Shown: positions 18,246 to 25,301, counted from the first letter of the stretch. The stretch is 38,766 bases of DNA from Microgenomates group bacterium RIFCSPHIGHO2_01_FULL_45_11 (GCA_001803465.1 MHDE01000005.1:17310-56075); one strand, 5' to 3'. Notes: generated from the letters alone by a model not told the origin. Translations and numbers: made by a program.

Positions 18246-19283
18246 ATGAAACAAAACCAGCATCGTGAATACCAGTACCTTAATCTCCTCCAAGACATTC
18301 TCGATCACGGGGTAGGAAAGATTAGCCACACTACTGGTGAGCATTTAAAAAGCGTCTTCGGCCGTCAAATCCGTTTTGATTTAGGTCAGGGTTTTCCGCT
18401 TCTCACCACCAAAAAGGTCTTTATTAAAGGCGTCATCCATGAACTATTGTGGTTTATCTCAGGCTCTAGTAACGTCACCTACTTGACGAGAAACGGCGTC
18501 CACATTTGGGATGACTGGGCGTATAAAAGCTACCAGTTACAAGTAGCCAGGAACAAGAAATTATCGGATCTTAGCCTCGAAGAGTTTCAGAAAAAAATTC
18601 AAGAAGATGATAACTTTGCCCAAAAATGGGGCGAGATCGGACCGGTTTACGGCTATCAATGGCGTAAGTGGCCATCAGCCGACGGCAGGGAAATAGATCA
18701 GCTGGCTTGGGTGATCGAAAAAATCGCCTTAAAACCCCAAAAGAAACACTATATCGTTTCAGCCTGGAATCCCGAGTACATTTACGAAATGGCCGCTCCA
18801 GGAAAAAGTATGGTCATTGCTCCCTGTCACACCTTTTACCATGTCAATATTGCCGCTGACAAACTCTCCCTTCAACTCTACCAAAGAAGCGCCGACATGT
18901 TTTTAGGCGTGCCCTTCAACATTGCTTCGTACGCTCTTTTAACGTTAATGCTCGCCCAAGTCACCGGCTACCGTCCTGGTGAGTTTGTCCACACTTTTGG
19001 CGACGCCCATATCTACGCCAACCACTTTAACCAAGTCAAAGAGCAACTCACCCGGAAACCTCGGCCCTTTCCCATCCTGAAGTTAAATCCCGCCATCAAA
19101 AAGATTGACGACTTCAAATACGAAGACTTTGAACTAGACGGTTACAACCCCTATCCAGCCATCAAAGCCCCCATCGCTGTTGTCGGCGGTTTTGAAGACA
19201 AAGACTACCAAGTCTTAAAAGACAAAATCAGCCGCCAGGGTAAGAAGGATAATAAGAAGGATAAAAGGATAAATAGAAGATAA
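18246..19283 (+). CDS. thyA: Thymidylate synthase (ThyA) with an internal insertion and a 33-aa K-rich C-terminal extension
   Basis: Motifs seen are [18 protein letters not shown], the catalytic PCH in [31 protein letters not shown] and ...IKAPIAV. Confidence 0.93.
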
Positions 19284-19313
19284 GATTCTTAAAACAAGTT
19301 CAGAATGACACCG

Positions 19314-19363
19314 GGGATATCTTCTGCCGTCATGCTGAATTCTTTTCAGCATCTAAATATCCC
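19314..19363. repeat. Nested hairpin / REP-like element downstream of thyA
   Basis: The outer stem is gggatat (19314-19320) / atatccc (19357-19363). The inner stem is atgctgaa (19332-19339) / ttcagcat (19345-19352). A related half-site caagttcagaatgac lies at 19295-19309 in inverted orientation. Confidence 0.55.
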
Positions 19364-19428
19364 AGAATTGACCATTGCGCAGTAGCGTATACTGAATAGA
19401 AATCTCATGAAAGAAGTTGAGTCACTCG

Positions 19429-20034
19429 ATGAGACTACCCAAAGCCATTACCCGCCTGATTGAACAACTGGAGAAATTACCCGGCATCGGGCCCAAAACT
19501 GCCCAACGCTTAACTTTTTATCTTCTCCACAATCCCCAAACCGAACTCGACAACTTTGCCGCAGCCTTCCAGAATCTTAAACGAGAAACGGTCATTTGTT
19601 CTATTTGTAACAACGTCGCTGAAACCGACCCGTGCCGAATTTGTTCCGACATTAGCCGGGACACGTCAATCATCTGCGTCGTCGAGCAACCCCTGGATAT
19701 CCTCGTCATCGAACGCAGTGGGGGCTACACCGGCCTCTATCACGTCCTCCACGGCGCCATCGCTCCCTTAAATAACATCGGCCCCGACCAACTCCACTTA
19801 AAGGATTTGCTGCCCCGTCTTAAAAGTGATACAATCCGTGAACTAATCTTGGCCACCAACCCCACCATGGAAGGGGACGCTACTGCCATGTATATCGCCA
19901 AATTAATCGAGGAGAAAGGCTTAAACAACTTTAAAATCACCCGCTTAGGCCGGGGATTGCCCGTCGGCGGCGATTTGGAATACGCCGACGACATCACCCT
20001 CACCCGTGCGTTTGAAGGCAGGAAAGAATTGTAG
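19429..20034 (+). CDS. recR: Recombination protein RecR
   Basis: It has the HhH motif LPGIGPKTAQRL, a C4 zinc finger CSICNN...CRIC and a Toprim domain. The start is taken at ATG 19429. Confidence 0.93.
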   Translation: MRLPKAITRLIEQLEKLPGIGPKTAQRLTFYLLHNPQTELDNFAAAFQNLKRETVICSICNNVAETDPCRICSDISRDTSIICVVEQPLDILVIERSGGYTGLYHVLHGAIAPLNNIGPDQLHLKDLLPRLKSDTIRELILATNPTMEGDATAMYIAKLIEEKGLNNFKITRLGRGLPVGGDLEYADDITLTRAFEGRKEL

Positions 20035-20035
20035 T

Positions 20036-20794
20036 ATGGCGGTGGAAGCTATAGAAACCGGATCTAAAATAAAAACATTAGGGTGTGAACCTGAAAACCC
20101 ACCCCAGGTTAGCCAATTTGTGAGAACTCTTGAGACTCGATTTTTAACTAGCTTTCATAAACAAGCAAACATGAAATTTTATGATGGGGTTGCACCTCAG
20201 TACGCCAATGAGCGGGCCTGGACTACAGACACAAGAAATAGCATTCGGGAAAACCTTATTAGGAGAGTCAACCAATATATTAGTGATGGAGACAAAATTT
20301 TAGTTGTCGGTACAGGAACTGGTAGCGACCAAGAAATTCTGCAAGAGATAGGAGCTGTGTGTTACGGTATTGACCTGTCTAGACTAATGTTAATAGAGGC
20401 AAAAAGACGTATAAATGATCATTTAGTTCAAGCGGAAGCAGACGAAATTCCATTTCCTACCGACTTTTTTAATTTTGTGTACTGTGAGGCTGCTGCAGAG
20501 CATTTTGATGGGCCGTTTCTTAGTACTGAATTTATTCCAGAACTAACAAGAGTGCTGGTTCCAAATCAGAAGAGAGCCAATTTATTATTAAGCGTTAGGT
20601 TGGGTAATGGAAAAGTTTATCGTATATCTGATAAGAATAGCTTTAAATACTTTGCAACTTATACACAAGAAACCATAAACAGAATTTTAACAGATGCAGG
20701 GGTAGAAATAGTCGAACAGTGGTGCTCTCAAGGAGGAACACCCAGCGTCGAAGGCATCTTACCTTGGTTTAATACTATAGGAAAAATAAGATAG
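20036..20794 (+). CDS. Class I SAM-dependent methyltransferase
   Basis: Motif I is ILVVGTGTGSD, followed by GIDLS. The start is either ATG 20036 (1 nt after the recR stop) or ATG 20171. Composition is AT-richer than the neighbours. Confidence 0.75.
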   Translation: MAVEAIETGSKIKTLGCEPENPPQVSQFVRTLETRFLTSFHKQANMKFYDGVAPQYANERAWTTDTRNSIRENLIRRVNQYISDGDKILVVGTGTGSDQEILQEIGAVCYGIDLSRLMLIEAKRRINDHLVQAEADEIPFPTDFFNFVYCEAAAEHFDGPFLSTEFIPELTRVLVPNQKRANLLLSVRLGNGKVYRISDKNSFKYFATYTQETINRILTDAGVEIVEQWCSQGGTPSVEGILPWFNTIGKIR

Positions 20795-20795
20795 T

Positions 20796-21371
20796 ATGAA
20801 GGTTTACTTTACAGCGGCAATAAGCGCTTTATCTCAGTATGGTGATAACTATAAGAAAATTGTAAGTTCTCTTGAGGATTTAGGTCATACAGTAATCGCT
20901 GACCACATTTTAAAGAAATCGTTGACACAGGTTTTATATCAAGAGAAACCAGAGGAACATGAGGCTTACTACAAGTCAATGATAAAAAATATTTCTAGCT
21001 CTGATTTATTAGTTGCTGAAGTTTCTTTTCCTTCAACTGTTCATGTAGGTCATGAGTTAACTTTAGCTCTTGAAAAAGATAAACCAGTTTTAGCCTTGTT
21101 TATCAAAGGGAAGAGACCGGTTTTATTTTGGGGAATTACTTCAGATAAGTTTTATGCAACCGAATACGAATTAGGTGATCTTAAAAAAACCTTGAAAGAT
21201 GCAATAGAGTATTTAACTGAACAAATGGACACTCGGTTTAACTTCTTTATTTCTCCCAAAATCGCTACCTACCTTGACTGGATTGCCAAAAAGAAACGCC
21301 TGCCTAGAGCGGTGTACCTTCGCCGCCTCATTGAAGAGGATATGAAGAACGACAAAAACTACAGTAAATAG
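20796..21371 (+). CDS. NDT-like domain protein with C-terminal ribbon-helix-helix-like tail (paralog A)
   Basis: The sequence is MKVYFTAA...LLVAEVSFPSTVHVGHELTLALEKDKPVLALF plus the tail RFNFFISPKIATYLDWIAKKKRLPRAVYLRRLIEEDM. It is paralogous to 22559-23131 and to the tmk N-terminus. Confidence 0.75.
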   Translation: MKVYFTAAISALSQYGDNYKKIVSSLEDLGHTVIADHILKKSLTQVLYQEKPEEHEAYYKSMIKNISSSDLLVAEVSFPSTVHVGHELTLALEKDKPVLALFIKGKRPVLFWGITSDKFYATEYELGDLKKTLKDAIEYLTEQMDTRFNFFISPKIATYLDWIAKKKRLPRAVYLRRLIEEDMKNDKNYSK

Positions 21372-21511
21372 CCAATCGTCAACAGACAATAGCCAATAGT
21401 AAACAGACAACAGTAAAAAGAGTATAGGGGTTAGAGCATAGAGCATAGGGAAAATACCTGTAGCTACCAGCTTTAAGCTTTCAGCTATAACCTATAGACT
21501 ATACACTACTC

Positions 21512-22444
21512 ATGAAATCTTTCATTTGTCCGACGCTAGCCATCGACGACATCACTTTGCCCGACACGGTCTTAACCAAGGTGGTCGGCGGCTCATCTAC
21601 CTATGCAGCCCTGGCTTCATCCTTATTTGCGCCTACGGTTTTAGGTAGCATTGTCGGCAACGACTTTCCCGAAAAGTACCTTACGTTTTTGGCGAAAAGA
21701 GGCGTTGATACCCGCGGCGTTCAACATTCCAAAAAACCTTCGTTTCATTGGGTAGCCAAATACTCCGATGATCTCCACGACGTCAAAACCATCAAAAATG
21801 AATTAAACGCCTTCGAAGATTTCCGCGTGCCCCCGCTTAAAAAGTATACCAAAGGTTGTTACAGCGCCTTTATTTCCAATATCGACCCCGACATCCAATT
21901 AAAAATTTTGAAACTCCTTCCCAAAAAAACCATTACCATCATTGACAGCATGGACTTATGGATGATTGAAAAGCGGTCAGCCTTAAAAAAAGCCATTAAA
22001 TTAGCCGATATTTTCATGGTCAGCGAGCCCGAAGCCGAGGTGCTAGTGCAGGAAAAATTACCCTTGCCGTCGCTCATTGAACGCCTGATGCTTTTAGGCC
22101 CCAAAGTCGTCATTTACAAACGCGGTGAGCACGGTATCGCCATGTACGGCAAGATGGGCACCTTAATCGTTCCCAGCTATCCCCTTACCTTTGCCGTTGA
22201 CCCTTCCGGAGCCGGCGACGCTTTGGGCGGCGCTATCGCCGGTGTTCTTTCCCGCCTTGGCCGTTTTGACCGGCAATCAATGGCCAGCGCCATGGTCTTA
22301 GGCAGCATCATCGCCTCTTTCACTGTCGAAGGCTACGGCACTGAAGGTTTGGAGCAAGTCATCCTTCCCGAAGTCATCAACCGCGCCAAGGTCTTTTTGA
22401 GCCAGCTTCCCTGTGAGGATCATATCAACCTCATCAAACCGTAG
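21512..22444 (+). CDS. PfkB-family carbohydrate/nucleoside kinase
   Basis: It carries PfkB signature 2 DPSGAGDALGGAIAG and an N-terminal GG-containing strand KVVGGSSTYAA. Confidence 0.85.
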   Translation: MKSFICPTLAIDDITLPDTVLTKVVGGSSTYAALASSLFAPTVLGSIVGNDFPEKYLTFLAKRGVDTRGVQHSKKPSFHWVAKYSDDLHDVKTIKNELNAFEDFRVPPLKKYTKGCYSAFISNIDPDIQLKILKLLPKKTITIIDSMDLWMIEKRSALKKAIKLADIFMVSEPEAEVLVQEKLPLPSLIERLMLLGPKVVIYKRGEHGIAMYGKMGTLIVPSYPLTFAVDPSGAGDALGGAIAGVLSRLGRFDRQSMASAMVLGSIIASFTVEGYGTEGLEQVILPEVINRAKVFLSQLPCEDHINLIKP

Positions 22445-22454
22445 TGGTGAGAAT

Positions 22455-22562
22455 ATGAAGGTTTATTCCAAGAAAGCAACGCCTCCGACACGGCGAAGCC
22501 GGATCGAAGGCAAAGCGATATCAATAGCGCCGAAGGCTCAAGGCGGAACATATCTTCTATGA
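22455..22562 (+). CDS. 35-codon upstream ORF (MKVYSKKATPPTRRSRIEGKAISIAPKAQGGTYLL*), possibly a decayed 5' remnant of an NDT-like paralog
   Basis: An SD-like ggtgag lies 5 nt upstream of the ATG. The first 12 nt (atgaaggtttat) match the start of paralog A. Its TGA overlaps the ATG of 22559 (ctATGAag). It is below the ORF-track length cutoff. Confidence 0.2.
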   Translation: MKVYSKKATPPTRRSRIEGKAISIAPKAQGGTYLL

Positions 22563-23131
22563 AGATCTATTTCACCGGTTCGCTCCACAACCTCGACATC
22601 GACAAAGATGTCTATCTCCAAATCGTCAAAACCGTTGAAAGTTTTGGCTATTCCGTCAAAGCCGACCACATTTTAAAAACCACCAAAGAAGAGCTAGATA
22701 AAAAAACCGCCCCAGAAAGAACTAGTTTTTATAAAGAACTCAACCGCTTTATTACCGCCTCCGACGTCGTCGTCGCCGAAGTTTCCTTTCCATCCACCAT
22801 CAATATCGGCCATGAAGTTTCCTTGGCCCTGGATAAAGGCAAGCCGATTATTGCCCTTTACCAGCCAGGCAGAGAACCCGGGGTACTTCAAGGCATCCAC
22901 TCCGACCGTTTTATCCTTTTGGAATACACTCTTACCGACCTCAAAACCGTTCTCGAATACGGCCTCGAAGAGGCCGCCGCTCAAATCGACATCCGCTTTA
23001 ACTTTTTTGTCTCGCCGGAAATCGCCAGCTACTTAGATTACGTCGCCAAAAAGAGAAAGCTGCCCCGCGCCGTTTATTTACGCCGTCTTATTGAAGAAGA
23101 CATGGCTAAAAACAGCGACTATTCAGGATAG
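22559..23131 (+). CDS. NDT-like domain protein with C-terminal ribbon-helix-helix-like tail (paralog B)
   Basis: The sequence is MKIYFTGS...VVVAEVSFPSTINIGHEVSLALDKGKPIIALY plus the tail RFNFFVSPEIASYLDYVAKKRKLPRAVYLRRLIEEDM. Codon usage is host-like. Confidence 0.75.
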   Translation: MKIYFTGSLHNLDIDKDVYLQIVKTVESFGYSVKADHILKTTKEELDKKTAPERTSFYKELNRFITASDVVVAEVSFPSTINIGHEVSLALDKGKPIIALYQPGREPGVLQGIHSDRFILLEYTLTDLKTVLEYGLEEAAAQIDIRFNFFVSPEIASYLDYVAKKRKLPRAVYLRRLIEEDMAKNSDYSG

Positions 23132-23259
23132 GACTCTACTTGCTTGCCCTTCCGTAGTTCCGAGCCGATTCGGTCTGAGCAGTTCGGTGAGCTCATCGCC
23201 GGAGGGCTCACGGTCGAATGACTTGCGAGGGACGAAGGAGGGTGTTACATTTACCCCAT

Positions 23260-23784
23260 ATGTCCAAAACCATAGGCGGTGACGTCTTTGAGCAGCTGGC
23301 CGAGCAGAGCAAACATACTGCCAAAACTACTGTCAGTCTTCCCGGCCAGGTCGTTAATCAAGCCTTGGGGAAGTCAACCGCTCTTACCGCGAGCGAAACC
23401 ACAGTTCCTGAAAAGAAAGACGCCATCCTACCACCTTCTCAACCAACCACCAGCTCTCAACCGCCAGGTTCAGTGATAGAACAACAACGAGCCCAAGAAG
23501 AGCTGGAAGCCAACAAGCTTAAGCGGCACCTTGAAAAAATTCGGGAAGAGGAAGACTATCAGCGAGCCAAATCCAACCAGCAAGTTGAAGCCTCAAAGCA
23601 ACAAGCCGAGCAAGAAAAGGTGGAGGAAGTCAAGCAATTAGAACATGCCCAATCCGAACAGGAAAAGTCCCAAGTGTTGCAGGCTGGACAATCAGGCGCT
23701 ACTCCAGTTGCCGCTATCGGGCCGATGGGAATGAAAATTCTCAAAAACAAGGCCACCCATGAGCGGGGCACGATTAAAGACTAG
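23260..23784 (+). CDS. Hypothetical Q/E/K-rich, probably coiled-coil protein
   Basis: The ORF is low-complexity, charged and helical. The start is taken at ATG 23260 (MSKTIGG), downstream of gaaggaggg. Confidence 0.5.
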   Translation: MSKTIGGDVFEQLAEQSKHTAKTTVSLPGQVVNQALGKSTALTASETTVPEKKDAILPPSQPTTSSQPPGSVIEQQRAQEELEANKLKRHLEKIREEEDYQRAKSNQQVEASKQQAEQEKVEEVKQLEHAQSEQEKSQVLQAGQSGATPVAAIGPMGMKILKNKATHERGTIKD

Positions 23785-23822
23785 AATCACGAATTAAAAA
23801 TAATGAATCACGAATTAAAAAT
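23784..23822. repeat. Tandem 18-nt direct repeat (gaatcacgaattaaaaat x2, period 21)
   Basis: The copies are at 23784-23801 and 23805-23822. They are followed by ctattcgctattggctattcgcta (23844-23867). Confidence 0.85.
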
Positions 23823-23873
23823 GTAGCTACAGGTTTTCAATTCCTATTCGCTATTGGCTATTCGCTAACCGCT

Positions 23874-25301
23874 ATGTTCTTATATAACACCCTCACCAAA
23901 AAAGTCGAAGATTTTAAACCTATAAACCCTCCTAAAGTCGGTGTCTACGCCTGTGGACCCACTGTCTATGACTACGCCCACCTCGGCCACATGAGAAAAT
24001 ACGTCGGCGATGACATTTTAGTGAGAACTTTAAAATATGTTGGCTTCGAGCCCAAACTAGTCATGAACATCACTGACGTTGGTCACCTCACCTCCGACGC
24101 CGATACCGGCGAGGACAAAATGGAAAAAGGTGCTCAAAAACATGGTTTAAACGTTTGGGATTTAGCCAACAAATTCACCCAGCAATTTTTTGATTCTACC
24201 ACTGCCCTTAACGTCAAACCACCCGACATCGTCTGCAAAGCTACCGATCATATTCCTGAACAAATCGAGCTCATTAAGAAACTTGAGGTCAAAGGCTACA
24301 CCTATAAAACTGACGACGGTATTTATTTTAACACCAGTAAATTCTCTGGTTATGACAAGTTAAGTGGCATGAAGCTAAATAAGCTCAAAGAGGGTGCTCG
24401 GGTTGAAACCAATCCCCAAAAGAAAAATCAGACCGATTTTGCCCTGTGGAAATTTACTCCCAGCGGAGTGAGGAGACAAATGGAATGGCCTTCACCCTGG
24501 GGTAAAGGCTTCCCCGGTTGGCACATTGAATGTTCTTCCATGAGCATGAAGTATTTAGGCGAGCAATTTGATATCCACACCGGCGGCATCGACCATGTTC
24601 CCATTCATCATACCAATGAAATCGCCCAGTCGGAAGCCGCTACCGGCAAAATCCCCTTTGTCAGATATTGGGTGCATCACGCCTTTTTATCAGTAGATGG
24701 TCAAAAGATGAGTAAAAGCCTAGACAACCTCTTCACGGTCGCAGACGTTACCAAGAAGGGTATTAATCCTCTGGCGCTCCGGTATCTTTATCTCACGACT
24801 CACTATCGCAAAACCCTAAATTTCACCTGGAAAGGCTTAGCTGCCGCCCGGCGTGGGCTGGAACGCTTGACTGAATCAGTCAGAAGGTTTCAAACCGACC
24901 AGCAACGCCTGTCCCTGTCACCAGAAAAATTAAAGAAGATTGATGCCTACCGTCAGGAATTCGACACCGCTATCAGTAGCGACCTAGATCTGCCTCAAGC
25001 CTTGGCCATTGCCTGGGAGGTAGTCAAGTCTAACATCCCTTCGACCGACAAGTACGACCTGTTACGCGATTTTGATTCCGTTTTTGGTCTGAATTTAGCT
25101 CAAACCACCAGTCAAGTTGAGGTTTTACCCGAAAGCTTGGAAAAGTTAGTCAAACAACGAGACAGTTTGCGTCTAGCCGGCGATTTTACCGGCGCCGATA
25201 AAATCCGCCAGAAACTGCTCCAACTGGGTTTTGTCATCGAAGACACCCCTACCGGCACCAAGGTAAAGAAAGGTAAAGAGACGAATGAAACGCTTTCGTA
25301 A
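23874..25301 (+). CDS. cysS: Cysteinyl-tRNA synthetase
   Basis: It has the class I motifs HLGH (AHLGHMRKY) and KMSKS. Confidence 0.95.
   Translation: MFLYNTLTKKVEDFKPINPPKVGVYACGPTVYDYAHLGHMRKYVGDDILVRTLKYVGFEPKLVMNITDVGHLTSDADTGEDKMEKGAQKHGLNVWDLANKFTQQFFDSTTALNVKPPDIVCKATDHIPEQIELIKKLEVKGYTYKTDDGIYFNTSKFSGYDKLSGMKLNKLKEGARVETNPQKKNQTDFALWKFTPSGVRRQMEWPSPWGKGFPGWHIECSSMSMKYLGEQFDIHTGGIDHVPIHHTNEIAQSEAATGKIPFVRYWVHHAFLSVDGQKMSKSLDNLFTVADVTKKGINPLALRYLYLTTHYRKTLNFTWKGLAAARRGLERLTESVRRFQTDQQRLSLSPEKLKKIDAYRQEFDTAISSDLDLPQALAIAWEVVKSNIPSTDKYDLLRDFDSVFGLNLAQTTSQVEVLPESLEKLVKQRDSLRLAGDFTGADKIRQKLLQLGFVIEDTPTGTKVKKGKETNETLS

Follow-up and report, generated by a model that had tools for sequence, protein, structure and literature searches.

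Paralogous DNPH1-like/ribbon-helix-helix fusion proteins paired with upstream enzyme genes in Microgenomates-type Patescibacteria

Described relatives and layout of the locus

Trigger enzymes and one-component regulators, such as PutA, NikR, NrtR, BirA, and PyrR, combine an enzyme or enzyme-like ligand domain with DNA binding in one chain and are encoded beside metabolically related genes. PutA joins a ribbon-helix-helix (RHH) domain to an enzyme, NikR joins an RHH domain to a ligand domain, and NrtR joins a Nudix-like domain to a wHTH, while HicB-type antitoxins have an N-terminal globular domain and a C-terminal RHH and are encoded downstream of their partner gene. We know of no trigger enzyme or one-component regulator that senses or catalyzes through a DNPH1/NDT-type domain. 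In DNPH1/Rcl (2'-deoxynucleoside 5'-phosphate N-hydrolase; hmdUMP hydrolase), the roles of the active-site residues have been described, and the residue at the Y24 position, which belongs to the catalytic triad, is informative about the sugar, with Tyr implying deoxyribose and Phe implying ribose (PMC10603095). MilB, which together with BlsM and BcmB represents the CMP and hydroxymethyl-CMP N-glycosidases of nucleoside-antibiotic pathways, has Phe at this position and prefers ribose (PMC10603095). MilB also carries the substrate motif F-L-(G/A)-(G/A)-P-F-(R/K), and genes for MilB-type glycosidases are linked to the gene for the modifying enzyme MilA (PMC4081090).

Here, we analyzed a 38,766-nt stretch of DNA (the window) from a candidate-phyla-radiation (Microgenomates-type) genome, in which two genes, encoding paralogs A and B, combine a DNPH1/Rcl-like N-terminal domain with a C-terminal RHH (Table 1). 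Both ORFs, the class-I SAM-dependent methyltransferase (MTase) gene preceding A, and the PfkB kinase gene between A and B were found where an earlier note on this DNA had placed them. Like the known trigger enzymes and one-component regulators, A and B have enzyme-like and DNA-binding domains in one chain and are encoded beside metabolically related genes, but their RHH is C-terminal rather than N-terminal as in PutA/NikR-type regulators, and unlike known trigger enzymes, their family has diversified within a single locus, giving rise to partner-specific paralogs and to pseudo-enzymes. They also share with HicB the order of an N-terminal globular domain and a C-terminal RHH, as well as a gene position downstream of the partner; however, their N-domain is unrelated to that of HicB, their partners are neither HicA nor a known toxin, their location is syntenic and housekeeping, and they match no model of a defense or toxin-antitoxin system. 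Sequence and literature searches returned no characterized protein with a DNPH1-like N-domain and a C-terminal RHH, as that note had supposed.

Table 1. Features of the recR–cysS region of the window
Feature	Position	Strand	Remarks
recR	19417..20034	+	Conserved flank on the left of the variable, cassette-bearing slot; Pfam RecR domains in public gene calls
Class-I SAM-dependent methyltransferase (UbiE/Methyltransf_11 type)	20036..20794	+	Partner enzyme, cassette 1; Methyltransf_11 E 4.7e-13
Paralog A, 191 aa	20796..21371	+	DNPH1/Rcl-like N-domain (aa 1 to ~142), then C-terminal RHH
RHH domain of paralog A (DTRFNFFISPKIATYLDWIAKKKRLPRAVYLRRLIEEDMKND)	21228..21353	+	RHH_3 match and family-level RHH evidence
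21-nt imperfect direct repeats, three overlapping copies	21361..21416	+	Overlap the end of gene A and extend into the spacer before PfkB
PfkB-family kinase, 310 aa	21512..22444	+	Partner enzyme, cassette 2; PF00294 E 4.7e-22; GAGD catalytic motif
Paralog B, 190 aa	22559..23131	+	DNPH1/Rcl-like N-domain, then C-terminal RHH
RHH domain of paralog B (DIRFNFFVSPEIASYLDYVAKKRKLPRAVYLRRLIEEDMAKN)	22988..23113	+	Tail-only AF2 model and Foldseek
cysS (cysteinyl-tRNA synthetase)	23874..25301	+	Conserved right flank of the slot; Pfam tRNA-synt_1e

The longest ORF for the MTase starts from GTG at 20006, and in public gene calls for this organism the gene begins with ATG at 20036, 1 nt past the recR stop; paralog A in turn starts 1 nt past the MTase stop. 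The closest PDB match of the MTase is the UbiE-related MTase 2avn (E 1e-6), and that of the PfkB kinase is an uncharacterized PfkB kinase, 3kd6 (E 5e-51), with ribokinase and nucleoside kinase models matching the PfkB kinase of the window below threshold. The dnaX-ybaB-recR genes adjoin the locus.

Domain identities and residue conservation

A and B are paralogs, with 95/190 residues identical (50%), 73% positives, and one gap (BLASTP E 2e-69), and the motifs by which the earlier note had recognized the pair, namely MK(V/I)YFT, VAEVSFPST, GHE, and the tail RFNFF...LPRAVYLRRLIEEDM, are all present. Nucleotide identity is 69% over the tail and 55% over the whole gene. The synonymous divergence claimed for the tails was borne out, as 31 of the 42 aligned codons encode identical residues and 17 of these 31 use different codons. 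Since A and B fall in separate deep clades of the family tree, recent gene conversion between them is ruled out, in agreement with what had been proposed.

The assignment of the N-domain to the NDT/DNPH1 superfamily held in both sequence and structure comparisons. When paralog B was searched against the PDB with phmmer, it matched rat Rcl (2klh, E 3.2e-11) and human DNPH1 (~1e-6) over residues 2-135. The AF2 model of B, with a mean pLDDT of 87.5 and ~90 across residues 1-140, matched DNPH1 4kxm in Foldseek (E 1e-8, TM to target 0.81) and MilB-type 4jem, 4ohr, and 4ohb (E ~1e-6); there were 67 PDB matches at E<=1e-3, and 50/50 of those listed are DNPH1/Rcl or MilB chains. Pfam PF05014 scored 19.4 bits for A and 24.7 bits for B, both under the gathering score of 28.8 bits, and precomputed PF05014 matches are present on many of their homologs.

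Both paralogs have Y4, D36-H37, S79, E86, and S115 (paralog B numbering), the equivalents of human DNPH1 Y24, E55-H56, S98, E104, and S128 (S128'), so that the nucleophile Glu of the GHE motif is kept in A and B alike. Of these, S98 and S128', the latter supplied by the dimer mate, contact the 5'-phosphate in DNPH1. On the other hand, by sequence alignment, the position of the general acid D80 in hDNPH1 (D69 in rat, D72 in NDT) appears to hold Leu in B, Met in A, and hydrophobic residues throughout the DNPH1-RHH family. The equivalent of R30, an Arg of the phosphate/base loop, is missing, with Ser at this position in A and His in B, and the R30/GS(I)RGG loop is not conserved. Since the general-acid Asp and R30 are missing, any catalysis by A and B must differ from that of DNPH1. 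The two proteins further differ from DNPH1/Rcl in their extra C-terminal RHH, and about a quarter of the family lacks the nucleophile. Tyr at the Y24 position predicts a deoxyribose preference for A and B; across the family, this position is Tyr in 80/123 copies and Phe in 21/123. We also considered a MilB-type hydroxymethyl-CMP glycosidase, with which A and B share superfamily, fold, and the linkage of the glycosidase gene to a gene for a nucleotide-modifying enzyme. This candidate was rejected, as A and B read (V/I)YFT(A/G)(A/S)(I/L), with Tyr and no Arg/Lys, and a MilA/ThyA-like hydroxymethylase is not generally linked to the family. In place of a ThyA-like hydroxymethylase, the family is paired with MTase, PfkB, radical-SAM, and P-loop kinase proteins, and MilB is without an RHH.

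The tail of ~42 aa is an RHH, as the earlier note had read it. Pfam RHH_3 matches 11 of 26 family tails, and all seven Foldseek matches of the B tail model are RHH proteins (Arc, HpNikR, and SvtR; rmsd 1.2-2.6 Å over 39-45 columns), with E-values of 2.4-6.8 that are high because the domain is so small. Although the window tails themselves fall under the Pfam cut-off (RHH_3 14.7 bits; A tail E 0.03), divergent in-register family tails pass the gathering scores (RHH_1 30.7 bits, GA 20.5; RHH_3 22.0 and 22.8 bits, GA 21.6), and A and B are therefore RHH members by transitivity. Tail helices lie at 153-166 and 170-184 in the full-length AF2 model of B, and the tail-only model has residues 7-15 extended and helices at 16-29 and 33-47 (pLDDT 91-95). 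The ribbon segment in these monomer models is a short helix (146-149) by DSSP when full-length and extended when tail-only.

In common with Arc, Mnt, CopG, and NikR-N, the tail has a predicted strand-helix-helix order in ~42 residues and is basic (+3.6 per 40 aa, compared to -2.8 for the acidic N-domain). It also has stand-alone relatives of Arc size (51-63 aa), found in surroundings that resemble phages or mobile elements, where Arc-type repressors usually occur. Unlike Arc, Mnt, CopG, and NikR-N, A and B have their RHH fused behind an enzyme-fold domain, at its C-terminus, and the R-x-N-x-F ribbon contains an unusual conserved Phe. This F150 is nearly invariant and, by alignment, stands at a ribbon position that faces DNA in Arc.

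Partner pairing and phyletic distribution of the family

The DNPH1-RHH proteins form a large lineage-specific family rather than a one-off fusion, with >640 protein clusters in at least 227 species genomes, essentially all of Microgenomates-type Patescibacteria, and one to six copies per locus. We found no specific name on any homolog, no paper describing the family, and no member on viral contigs. The RHH tail is present in 123/123 family copies, and R146 and R175 are invariant among these, while the nucleophile Glu is found in only 89/123. Conservation within the protein is highest in the RHH, which forms the core of the family, and many copies are probably pseudo-enzymes, judging by the loss of the nucleophile. 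Ribbon positions 148 (N/T) and 150 (F/L/M) vary between paralog classes, as expected if the DNA specificities of the paralogs differ, and the ribbon residues R-N-F are near-invariant among the enzyme-paired classes.

The earlier note had regarded the pair of paralogs bracketing PfkB as a unit, but this arrangement is not what is conserved. Instead, the window holds two independent cassettes, each an enzyme gene followed by a DNPH1-RHH gene (MTase then A, and PfkB then B), inside a recR–cysS slot that varies in copy number and partner. Among related loci, RecR lies upstream in 32/80 and CysS downstream in 28/80, and the gap between partner and copy ranges from an overlap to a few nt. Across the family, the partners are MTases, radical-SAM enzymes, PfkB, P-loop kinases, a TK-like protein, and NUDIX, and the paralog clades follow the type of upstream partner, with single genomes holding different clades together. 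Paralog A sits in an MTase-partnered clade, where an MTase precedes 21 related A-type copies, and the clade of B has PfkB upstream of every member; linkage to PfkB is limited to this clade and to some radical-SAM cassettes at one gene's remove. Glu86 is kept in 59/61 enzyme-paired copies compared to 30/62 unpaired copies (Fisher p 5e-10, with copies counted irrespective of phylogeny), and the unpaired, extra tandem copies have often lost the Glu but always keep the RHH.

Regulatory and enzymatic readings of A and B

Since conservation of the RHH exceeds that of the catalytic Glu, we favor, tentatively and with slightly less than even confidence, reading A and B as nucleotide-responsive trigger enzymes or one-component regulators. 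Both have the layout of a trigger enzyme, with an enzyme-type and a DNA-binding domain in one polypeptide that is stably paired with genes for nucleotide or small-molecule enzymes. The partner enzyme would make or modify a (deoxy)nucleoside monophosphate, the DNPH1-like domain would bind that nucleotide, and the RHH would dimerize and bind DNA, which would couple nucleotide occupancy to transcription of the cassette or of other targets. Copies that retain the Glu, such as A and B, would probably cleave the N-glycosidic bond via a covalent Glu86 intermediate, while the Glu-less tandem paralogs in other genomes may be pure sensors or regulators, or hetero-oligomer partners. Paralogy, domain identities, residue conservation, phyletic distribution, and the pairing with partners are shown here, while we infer the substrate, catalysis, dimerization, DNA binding, and regulation by A and B, as well as the sensor-regulator or trigger-enzyme role for a salvage module put forward in the earlier note. 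The family, which is widespread yet uncharacterized, most plausibly links nucleotide chemistry to gene control.

Several observations count against a regulator. The window copies are under the PF05014 and RHH gathering cut-offs, paralogous regulators with distinct targets would not usually share a ribbon as uniform as the near-invariant R-N-F of the enzyme-paired classes, and an autoregulator would typically be encoded upstream of its partner or divergently from it, while the RHH gene here follows it. In addition, k-mer enrichment in 77 regions upstream of cassettes compared to 261 control spacers, a comparison of low power, revealed no conserved operator. The only enriched words were the promoter-like TATAAT and TGnTATAAT, and a GCCAAT-containing word was just ~2-fold enriched. 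The direct repeats at the end of gene A, together with further short tandem repeats in the A-PfkB spacer (21372-21511), are candidate protein-binding repeats, but they are not conserved in the spacers of the closest relatives. The RNA fold of this spacer is not significant (z -2.0).

The negative operator search, as well as a near-invariant ribbon in the paired classes that fits a common non-specific target, would also suit a purely metabolic function, which we regard as unlikely but credible. A and B would then act as (d)NMP N-glycosidases or deoxyribosyl-transferases that share two-step routes of salvage or sanitation with their partners. The NMP would be made by a kinase or NUDIX partner, or modified by an MTase or radical-SAM partner, before the glycosidase freed base and sugar phosphate, and the RHH would be no regulator but solely an oligomerization module or a non-specific nucleoid tether. 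Patescibacteria depend on nucleotide salvage, the kinase and NUDIX partners all yield nucleoside monophosphates, and the enzyme-paired copies that so consistently keep the catalytic Glu keep the Tyr, Asp/Glu-His, and Ser residues too. MilA/MilB offers a precedent for a modifier-plus-glycosidase gene pair (PMC4081090). However, the general-acid Asp is missing, the strongest conservation falls on the RHH, and 34/123 copies without the nucleophile still have an intact RHH, so RHH function persists without catalysis. In addition, since DNPH1 and MilB already dimerize via the catalytic domain (PMC10603095), an extra dimerization module is not obviously needed. That A and B are instead DNA-docked base-exchange or N-glycosidase enzymes, or enzymatic 'immunity' partners that destroy a modified nucleotide from the adjacent MTase, radical-SAM enzyme, or kinase, seems improbable to us; if true, either would represent a previously unrecognized modular modified-nucleotide system and its radiation into partner-specific cassettes in a salvage-dependent, genome-reduced lineage. 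An antitoxin-like arrangement, in which the product of the partner would be a modified nucleotide that does harm, the DNPH1-like domain would destroy it or neutralize the enzyme, and the RHH would auto-repress the pair, would mirror HicAB in having the effector gene upstream of the RHH gene and the neutralizing domain N-terminal to the RHH. Weak matches to VapB (window tails) and to HicB_lk, CopG_antitoxin, and CcdA (one divergent tail), a slot variable in copy number and partner, and the distant relationship of P-loop kinases to zeta-toxin-type kinases point the same way. We nevertheless consider this arrangement decidedly improbable, as the partners are ordinary-looking metabolic enzymes of 170-340 aa, PADLOC gives no match for A or B, the family is absent from viral contigs, the position is syntenic, vertically inherited, and beside housekeeping genes, and the clades show long-standing stability, not sporadic occurrence. 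A HicB-type type II antitoxin in the strict sense was rejected, given the lack of HicA or a recognized toxin partner, of a PADLOC match, and of copies on viral contigs, and the syntenic recR–cysS slot.

An RHH that docks the NDT-type domain on DNA, where a base would be removed or exchanged in or beside the DNA and the partners would supply or process the modified base, strikes us as very improbable. The fused DNA-binding domain is invariant with a nearly invariant F150 in its ribbon, the Tyr at the Y24 position predicts deoxyribose, and the locus adjoins dnaX-ybaB-recR, all of which are consistent with a DNA-directed glycosidase or transglycosylase. However, Glu-less copies are common, no restriction-modification or DNA-modification gene set is associated, the idea is entirely inferential, and to our knowledge, no NDT/DNPH1-family member acts on polymeric DNA. 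While the chemistry of the NDT superfamily, base exchange via a covalent deoxyribosyl-Glu intermediate (PMC10603095), would fit such an activity, the active site of DNPH1 is a closed pocket for mononucleotides (PMC10603095), which argues against it. We give least credence to a role in anti-phage defense or conflict, in which A and B would be nucleotide-depleting effectors and their RHH would sense or regulate, an option that the earlier note had also disfavored. NDT/DrHyd-type domains serve as effectors in some conflict systems, and the locus holds a variable tandem array. Yet there is no PADLOC match, no copy was found on viral contigs, the surroundings are syntenic and housekeeping, the locus has no NTPase, sensor, or other defense-type partner genes, and a genome-reduced lineage has retained copies in at least 227 of its species.

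General linkage of thyA to the DNPH1-RHH family was not found in related loci. In the window, a thyA gene lies ~1.5 kb upstream, where it encodes a canonical ThyA (357 bits) and adjoins DHFR and GlyA.

Two partner-linked cassettes and their domain architecture

Both copies of the fusion protein, here called A and B, were found on the forward strand exactly where and at the sizes that the earlier note had given, and they are clear paralogs, as it had claimed (50% identity, 73% positives, one gap, E 2e-69). The PfkB kinase between them and the SAM methyltransferase before A are likewise borne out by Pfam matches. However, the note had the pair bracketing the kinase as one unit, and we find instead two cassettes, each with a partner enzyme gene followed by a DNPH1-RHH gene: methyltransferase→A and PfkB→B. 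With the methyltransferase start of the public gene calls, recR, the methyltransferase gene and A are spaced one nucleotide apart. The synonymous divergence reported for the two tails also holds, as 31 of the 42 tail codons encode identical residues and 17 of these 31 use different codons; nucleotide identity between A and B is 69% in the tail and 55% over the whole gene.

Coordinates of the features discussed (L-numbers are related loci on other contigs, with coordinates local to each)
Feature	Position	Strand	Properties
Paralog A	window:20796-21371	+	191 aa
Paralog B	window:22559-23131	+	190 aa
PfkB-family kinase	between A and B		PF00294, E 4.7e-22
Class-I SAM methyltransferase	directly before A; start 20036 in public gene calls for the same organism		Methyltransf_11, E 4.7e-13
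A-PfkB spacer	window:21361-21511		unusually repetitive
Three overlapping imperfect 21-nt direct repeats	window:21361-21416		ACAGnnAATAGCCAATnGTnA
Stand-alone RHH protein	L085:3499-3654
Stand-alone RHH protein	L086:1405-1596
Stand-alone RHH protein	L087:38-208
Glu-less second-in-tandem subclade	L013:8635-9213
Glu-less second-in-tandem subclade	L026:8628-9197
Glu-less second-in-tandem subclade	L030:6847-7398
Glu-less second-in-tandem subclade	L053:8570-9139
Glu-less second-in-tandem subclade	L042:3825-4391
Glu-less second-in-tandem subclade	L011:9936-10535
tRNA gene	L021:6888-6959		tRNA-Cys(GCA)
tRNA gene	L044:6875-6949		odd ARAGORN call, 4-base anticodon loop
HerA/DUF87 and TraG/VirD4-like coupling-protein ATPase	window:3115-5235		706 aa
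dnaX	window:13878-15401
glyA, DHFR/RibD_C-like gene, thyA	window:16263-19283	-, -, +	complete thymidylate cycle
Low-complexity protein	window:23218-23784		188 aa, Q/E/K-rich, no Pfam match
Partial IMPDH/GMP-reductase match	window:25933-27432		499 aa; 52 bits, residues 169-417

The Pfam NDT model PF05014 scores both copies below its cut-off of 28.8 bits (A 19.4, B 24.7). In a PDB sequence search, residues 2-135 aligned with rat Rcl/DNPH1 (E 3e-11) and with human DNPH1 (E about 1e-6), and an AlphaFold2 model built from 39 family sequences (mean pLDDT 87.5, about 90 in the N-domain) retrieved DNPH1 in Foldseek at E 1e-8, with a TM to target of about 0.8 and MilB lower in the list. The sequence and structure matches together place the N-domain in the NDT/DNPH1 superfamily, as first proposed. 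Among the key DNPH1 residues defined in a mechanism paper (PMC10603095), both window copies retain the equivalents of Y24 (Tyr4 in B), E55-H56 (Asp36-His37), S98 (Ser79), the nucleophile E104 (Glu86) and S128' (Ser115), whereas the position of the general acid D80 is Leu or Met, and hydrophobic family-wide, and the R30 equivalent is missing. Because the key residues are kept while D80 and R30 are changed, the N-domain reads as a divergent DNPH1-like nucleotide-binding or N-glycosidase module that is plausibly active. At the Y24 position A and B have Tyr, not Phe, which by comparison with the MilB F17Y result predicts a deoxyribose ligand (PMC10603095, PMC4081090).

For the C-terminal tail, single-sequence searches gave weak matches, all of them to RHH proteins (RHH_3 at E 0.03, a VapB model, and YiiF and a CopG-family protein in the PDB at E about 1). 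At the family level, Pfam RHH_3 matched 11 of 26 tails, with a best E of 1.4e-4, and divergent tails that read G-x-(S/P)-R-S-E-Y-I-R-x-L-I in an in-register alignment exceeded Pfam gathering scores (RHH_1, 30.7 bits; RHH_3, 22.0 and 22.8 bits). A tail-only AlphaFold2 model had an extended stretch leading into two helices (pLDDT 91-95), and all seven of its Foldseek matches were RHH proteins (Arc, H. pylori NikR and SvtR) at an rmsd of 1.2-2.6 A; with so small a domain, their E-values do not reach significance. The tail is basic, at +3.6 per 40 residues, and the N-domain is acidic. We consider the RHH assignment secure, and the domain would be expected to dimerise and bind DNA.

Distribution and partner genes of the family

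A word-indexed search returned 646 protein clusters, and nearly all of the 120 listed are about 190 aa long with ~99% coverage, so that these carry both domains; those that are named at all are called "hypothetical protein", "nucleoside 2-deoxyribosyltransferase" or "2'-deoxynucleoside 5'-phosphate N-hydrolase". When each species was represented by a single genome, relatives turned up in at least 227 genomes, and the informative labels were Microgenomates-type Patescibacteria (Shapiro-, Collier-, Beckwith-, Woese- and Chisholmbacteria). Apparent archaeal homologs, labelled Bathyarchaeia or Methanoperedens, were set aside, since their neighbours are bacterial or CPR-type (recR and cysS in L006, Mur ligase and Ddl in L034) and the contigs are therefore probably mis-binned. 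Clear CPR synteny was also seen on many contigs titled 'uncultured Pseudomonadales', 'Gammaproteobacteria', 'Vitreimonas', 'Methanoperedens' and 'Bathyarchaeia' (L002, L004, L006, L007, L012, L034 and others), and such titles are very likely placeholder or mis-binning artefacts.

Across 80 related loci, family genes occupy a few syntenic positions, most commonly dnaX-ybaB-recR-[slot]-cysS, with between one and six DNPH1-RHH genes in the slot. Directly upstream of nearly every first copy lies one enzyme gene, often overlapping it or separated by a few nucleotides. The partners are a radical-SAM protein (21 loci), SAM-methyltransferases (several clusters), a PfkB kinase, P-loop kinases (AAA_33 or shikimate-kinase-like), a thymidine-kinase-like protein and a NUDIX hydrolase. 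In a neighbour-joining tree of 123 copies, the clades follow the upstream partner: B clusters with the six PfkB-partnered copies and A with methyltransferase-partnered copies, while co-directional radical-SAM, divergent radical-SAM and P-loop partners each define distinct clades. Since single genomes also hold copies from different clades, the copies are old paralogs, each bound to its own partner gene.

A tail-only profile run against 1.84 billion representatives matched 377 proteins. We rejected the idea of the tail as a promiscuous module, as nearly all of the best 150 of the 377 were ~190-aa proteins with the tail at the C terminus, or fragments thereof. The exceptions among these 150 were three stand-alone RHH proteins of 51-63 aa. 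They share the tail motif of the family (R-x-N-F-F-V-T ... P-(R/M)-S-V-Y-L-R-x-L-I-E), and small overlapping ORFs surround them, some of which encode a VRR-NUC/RecU-like nuclease, an HTH protein and a lytic transglycosylase. The setting looks like a phage or mobile element, and such an element is a possible source of the fused tail. A split version of the fusion was also rejected: in an hhalign comparison, the protein encoded ahead of a stand-alone RHH did not match the NDT domain (probability 0.2%).

Our literature searches on NDT with RHH, DNPH1 with Patescibacteria and deoxyribosyltransferase with CPR returned nothing relevant. In agreement with the earlier note, they yielded no characterised protein that joins an NDT-like fold to a C-terminal RHH, nor any description of the DNPH1/NDT-RHH combination, of the partner-specific cassettes and pseudo-enzyme radiation, or of a restriction to one CPR class. 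The DNPH1-RHH family is real, widespread and uncharacterised, and it overturns no established idea; both domains come from well-known superfamilies, and an enzyme fused to a DNA-binding domain is a known kind of regulator, as in PutA and NikR (both with RHH), NrtR, BirA and PyrR.

Conservation and candidate functions

No other part of the protein is as well conserved as the RHH. The tail, R146 and R175 are kept in 123 of 123 copies and N148 in 112, whereas the nucleophile Glu86 is present in 89. Glu86 is retained in 59 of the 61 copies directly downstream of an enzyme gene but in only 30 of the 62 extra tandem or orphan copies (Fisher p 5e-10, a test that ignores phylogeny among copies), and the replacements in unpaired copies are Leu, Ile, Cys, Ser, Arg, Lys and Asn. 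Together, these patterns make an RHH-mediated function the constant of the family, and they suggest that catalysis or Glu-dependent ligand binding is maintained specifically where a partner enzyme is present. The ribbon is altered in Glu-less classes (e.g., R-F-T-F-F or R-F-T-M-L), as would be expected if they differed in DNA specificity.

The best-supported model, which we hold tentatively, is that DNPH1-RHH proteins are nucleotide-responsive trigger enzymes or one-component regulators. The partner enzyme would make or modify a (deoxy)nucleoside monophosphate, the DNPH1-like domain would bind that nucleotide and, in A and B, probably cleave it, and the RHH would couple nucleotide state to DNA binding. 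The MilA/MilB gene pair, a modifier and a glycosidase, offers a precedent for the partner-linked layout (PMC4081090). The main weakness of the regulator model is that no operator was found. When 77 cassette-upstream spacers were compared with 261 other spacers (7-9-mer presence, 5-6-mer counts), the only enriched words were promoter-type TATAAT / GATATAAT, and a recurring TA(T/A)(A/G)GCCAAT word spotted by eye was enriched only about 2-fold. In the A-PfkB spacer, the 21-nt repeats are followed by AGAGCAT twice, AGCTTTn three times and CTATA(G/C)AC-type repeats just before the PfkB start, and these repeats are not conserved in the spacers of the closest relatives. No Rfam family matched 19200-24000, RNA folding of the window spacers was unremarkable (z -1.8, -2.0 and +0.1; the A-PfkB spacer, -2.0), and promoter and terminator scans of these spacers did not rise above shuffled expectation.

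The chief rival is a purely metabolic glycosidase in which the RHH acts in oligomerisation or as a non-specific tether to the nucleoid. It accounts for the missing operator and for the R-N-F ribbon that is almost invariant among paired classes; this reading leaves the intact RHH of Glu-less copies unexplained, and we judge it rather doubtful. We also rate lower the possibility that the N-domain cleaves SAH or 5'-deoxyadenosine released by the methyltransferase and radical-SAM partners, because Tyr at the Y24 position in A, B and most paired copies favours 2'-deoxyribose (PMC10603095) and because the kinase and NUDIX partners would go unexplained. Synteny among housekeeping genes and the lack of any defence or mobile-element signature speak against three further readings: an immunity or antitoxin-like module with a HicB-like layout is unlikely, a DNA-directed glycosidase or transglycosylase less likely again, and a defence effector the most improbable. 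Against defence in particular, PADLOC gave nothing for A or B, no relatives were found on viral contigs, and tblastn of phage genomes gave one marginal match (E 0.07).

To our knowledge, Patescibacteria lack de novo nucleotide synthesis and have very few recognisable regulators, and little is understood of how they regulate and clean the nucleotide pools that they salvage. In one major class of this group, with up to six tandem genes in a genome of about 1 Mb, a DNA-binding domain is joined to the fold of DNPH1, the enzyme that sanitises the nucleotide pool in humans. If nucleotide-responsive regulation or trigger-enzyme action is the role of these proteins, the lineage would have its own solution to nucleotide homeostasis, RHH regulators would gain a new sensor domain, and the methyltransferase-, radical-SAM-, kinase- and NUDIX-specific paralogs would point to so far unknown nucleotide transformations. 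Glu-retaining and Glu-less paralogs also form a natural enzyme-to-pseudoenzyme series in which the turning of enzymes into sensors could be studied.

Tandem arrays and neighbouring genes

One Glu-less subclade has Leu, Cys or Ser at the nucleophile position and the ribbon RFTFFVTPKI. Its members in L013, L026, L030 and L053 lie right behind a Glu-retaining, radical-SAM-partnered copy, the L011 member comes third in an array of that kind, and the L042 member is preceded by a Glu-less copy. The order of Glu-retaining and Glu-less copies suggests enzyme/pseudo-enzyme pairs.

The gene order PfkB, radical SAM, DNPH1-RHH occurs in L009, L011, L026, L049 and L067, and in L019, L031, L037 and L071 PfkB lies on the opposite strand, one gene upstream of the radical-SAM cassette; these arrangements hint that some lineages have a module of three genes. 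An RmlC-like epimerase and apparent sugar-nucleotide genes adjoin the PfkB/radical-SAM arrays of L009, L019, L031, L037, L067 and L071. In L021 and L044, a tRNA gene between recR and the partner enzyme forms the left boundary of the variable slot and adjoins cysS-linked genes. At about 19 related loci, low-complexity proteins (clusters 'lowcx' and c22) lie directly downstream of DNPH1-RHH and upstream of cysS, and the window has one downstream of B.

The thymidylate-cycle genes of the window split dnaX from recR, while dnaX-ybaB-recR is contiguous at most related loci; the window ThyA, long at 345 aa, carries an internal insertion and ends in a Lys-rich tail. Another nucleotide-metabolism gene near the locus encodes the protein with the weak IMPDH/GMP-reductase match, which has an N-terminal extension of about 170 aa. 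Farther upstream, the coupling-protein ATPase could be part of a DNA-uptake or type-IV-secretion-like apparatus relevant to nucleotide acquisition.
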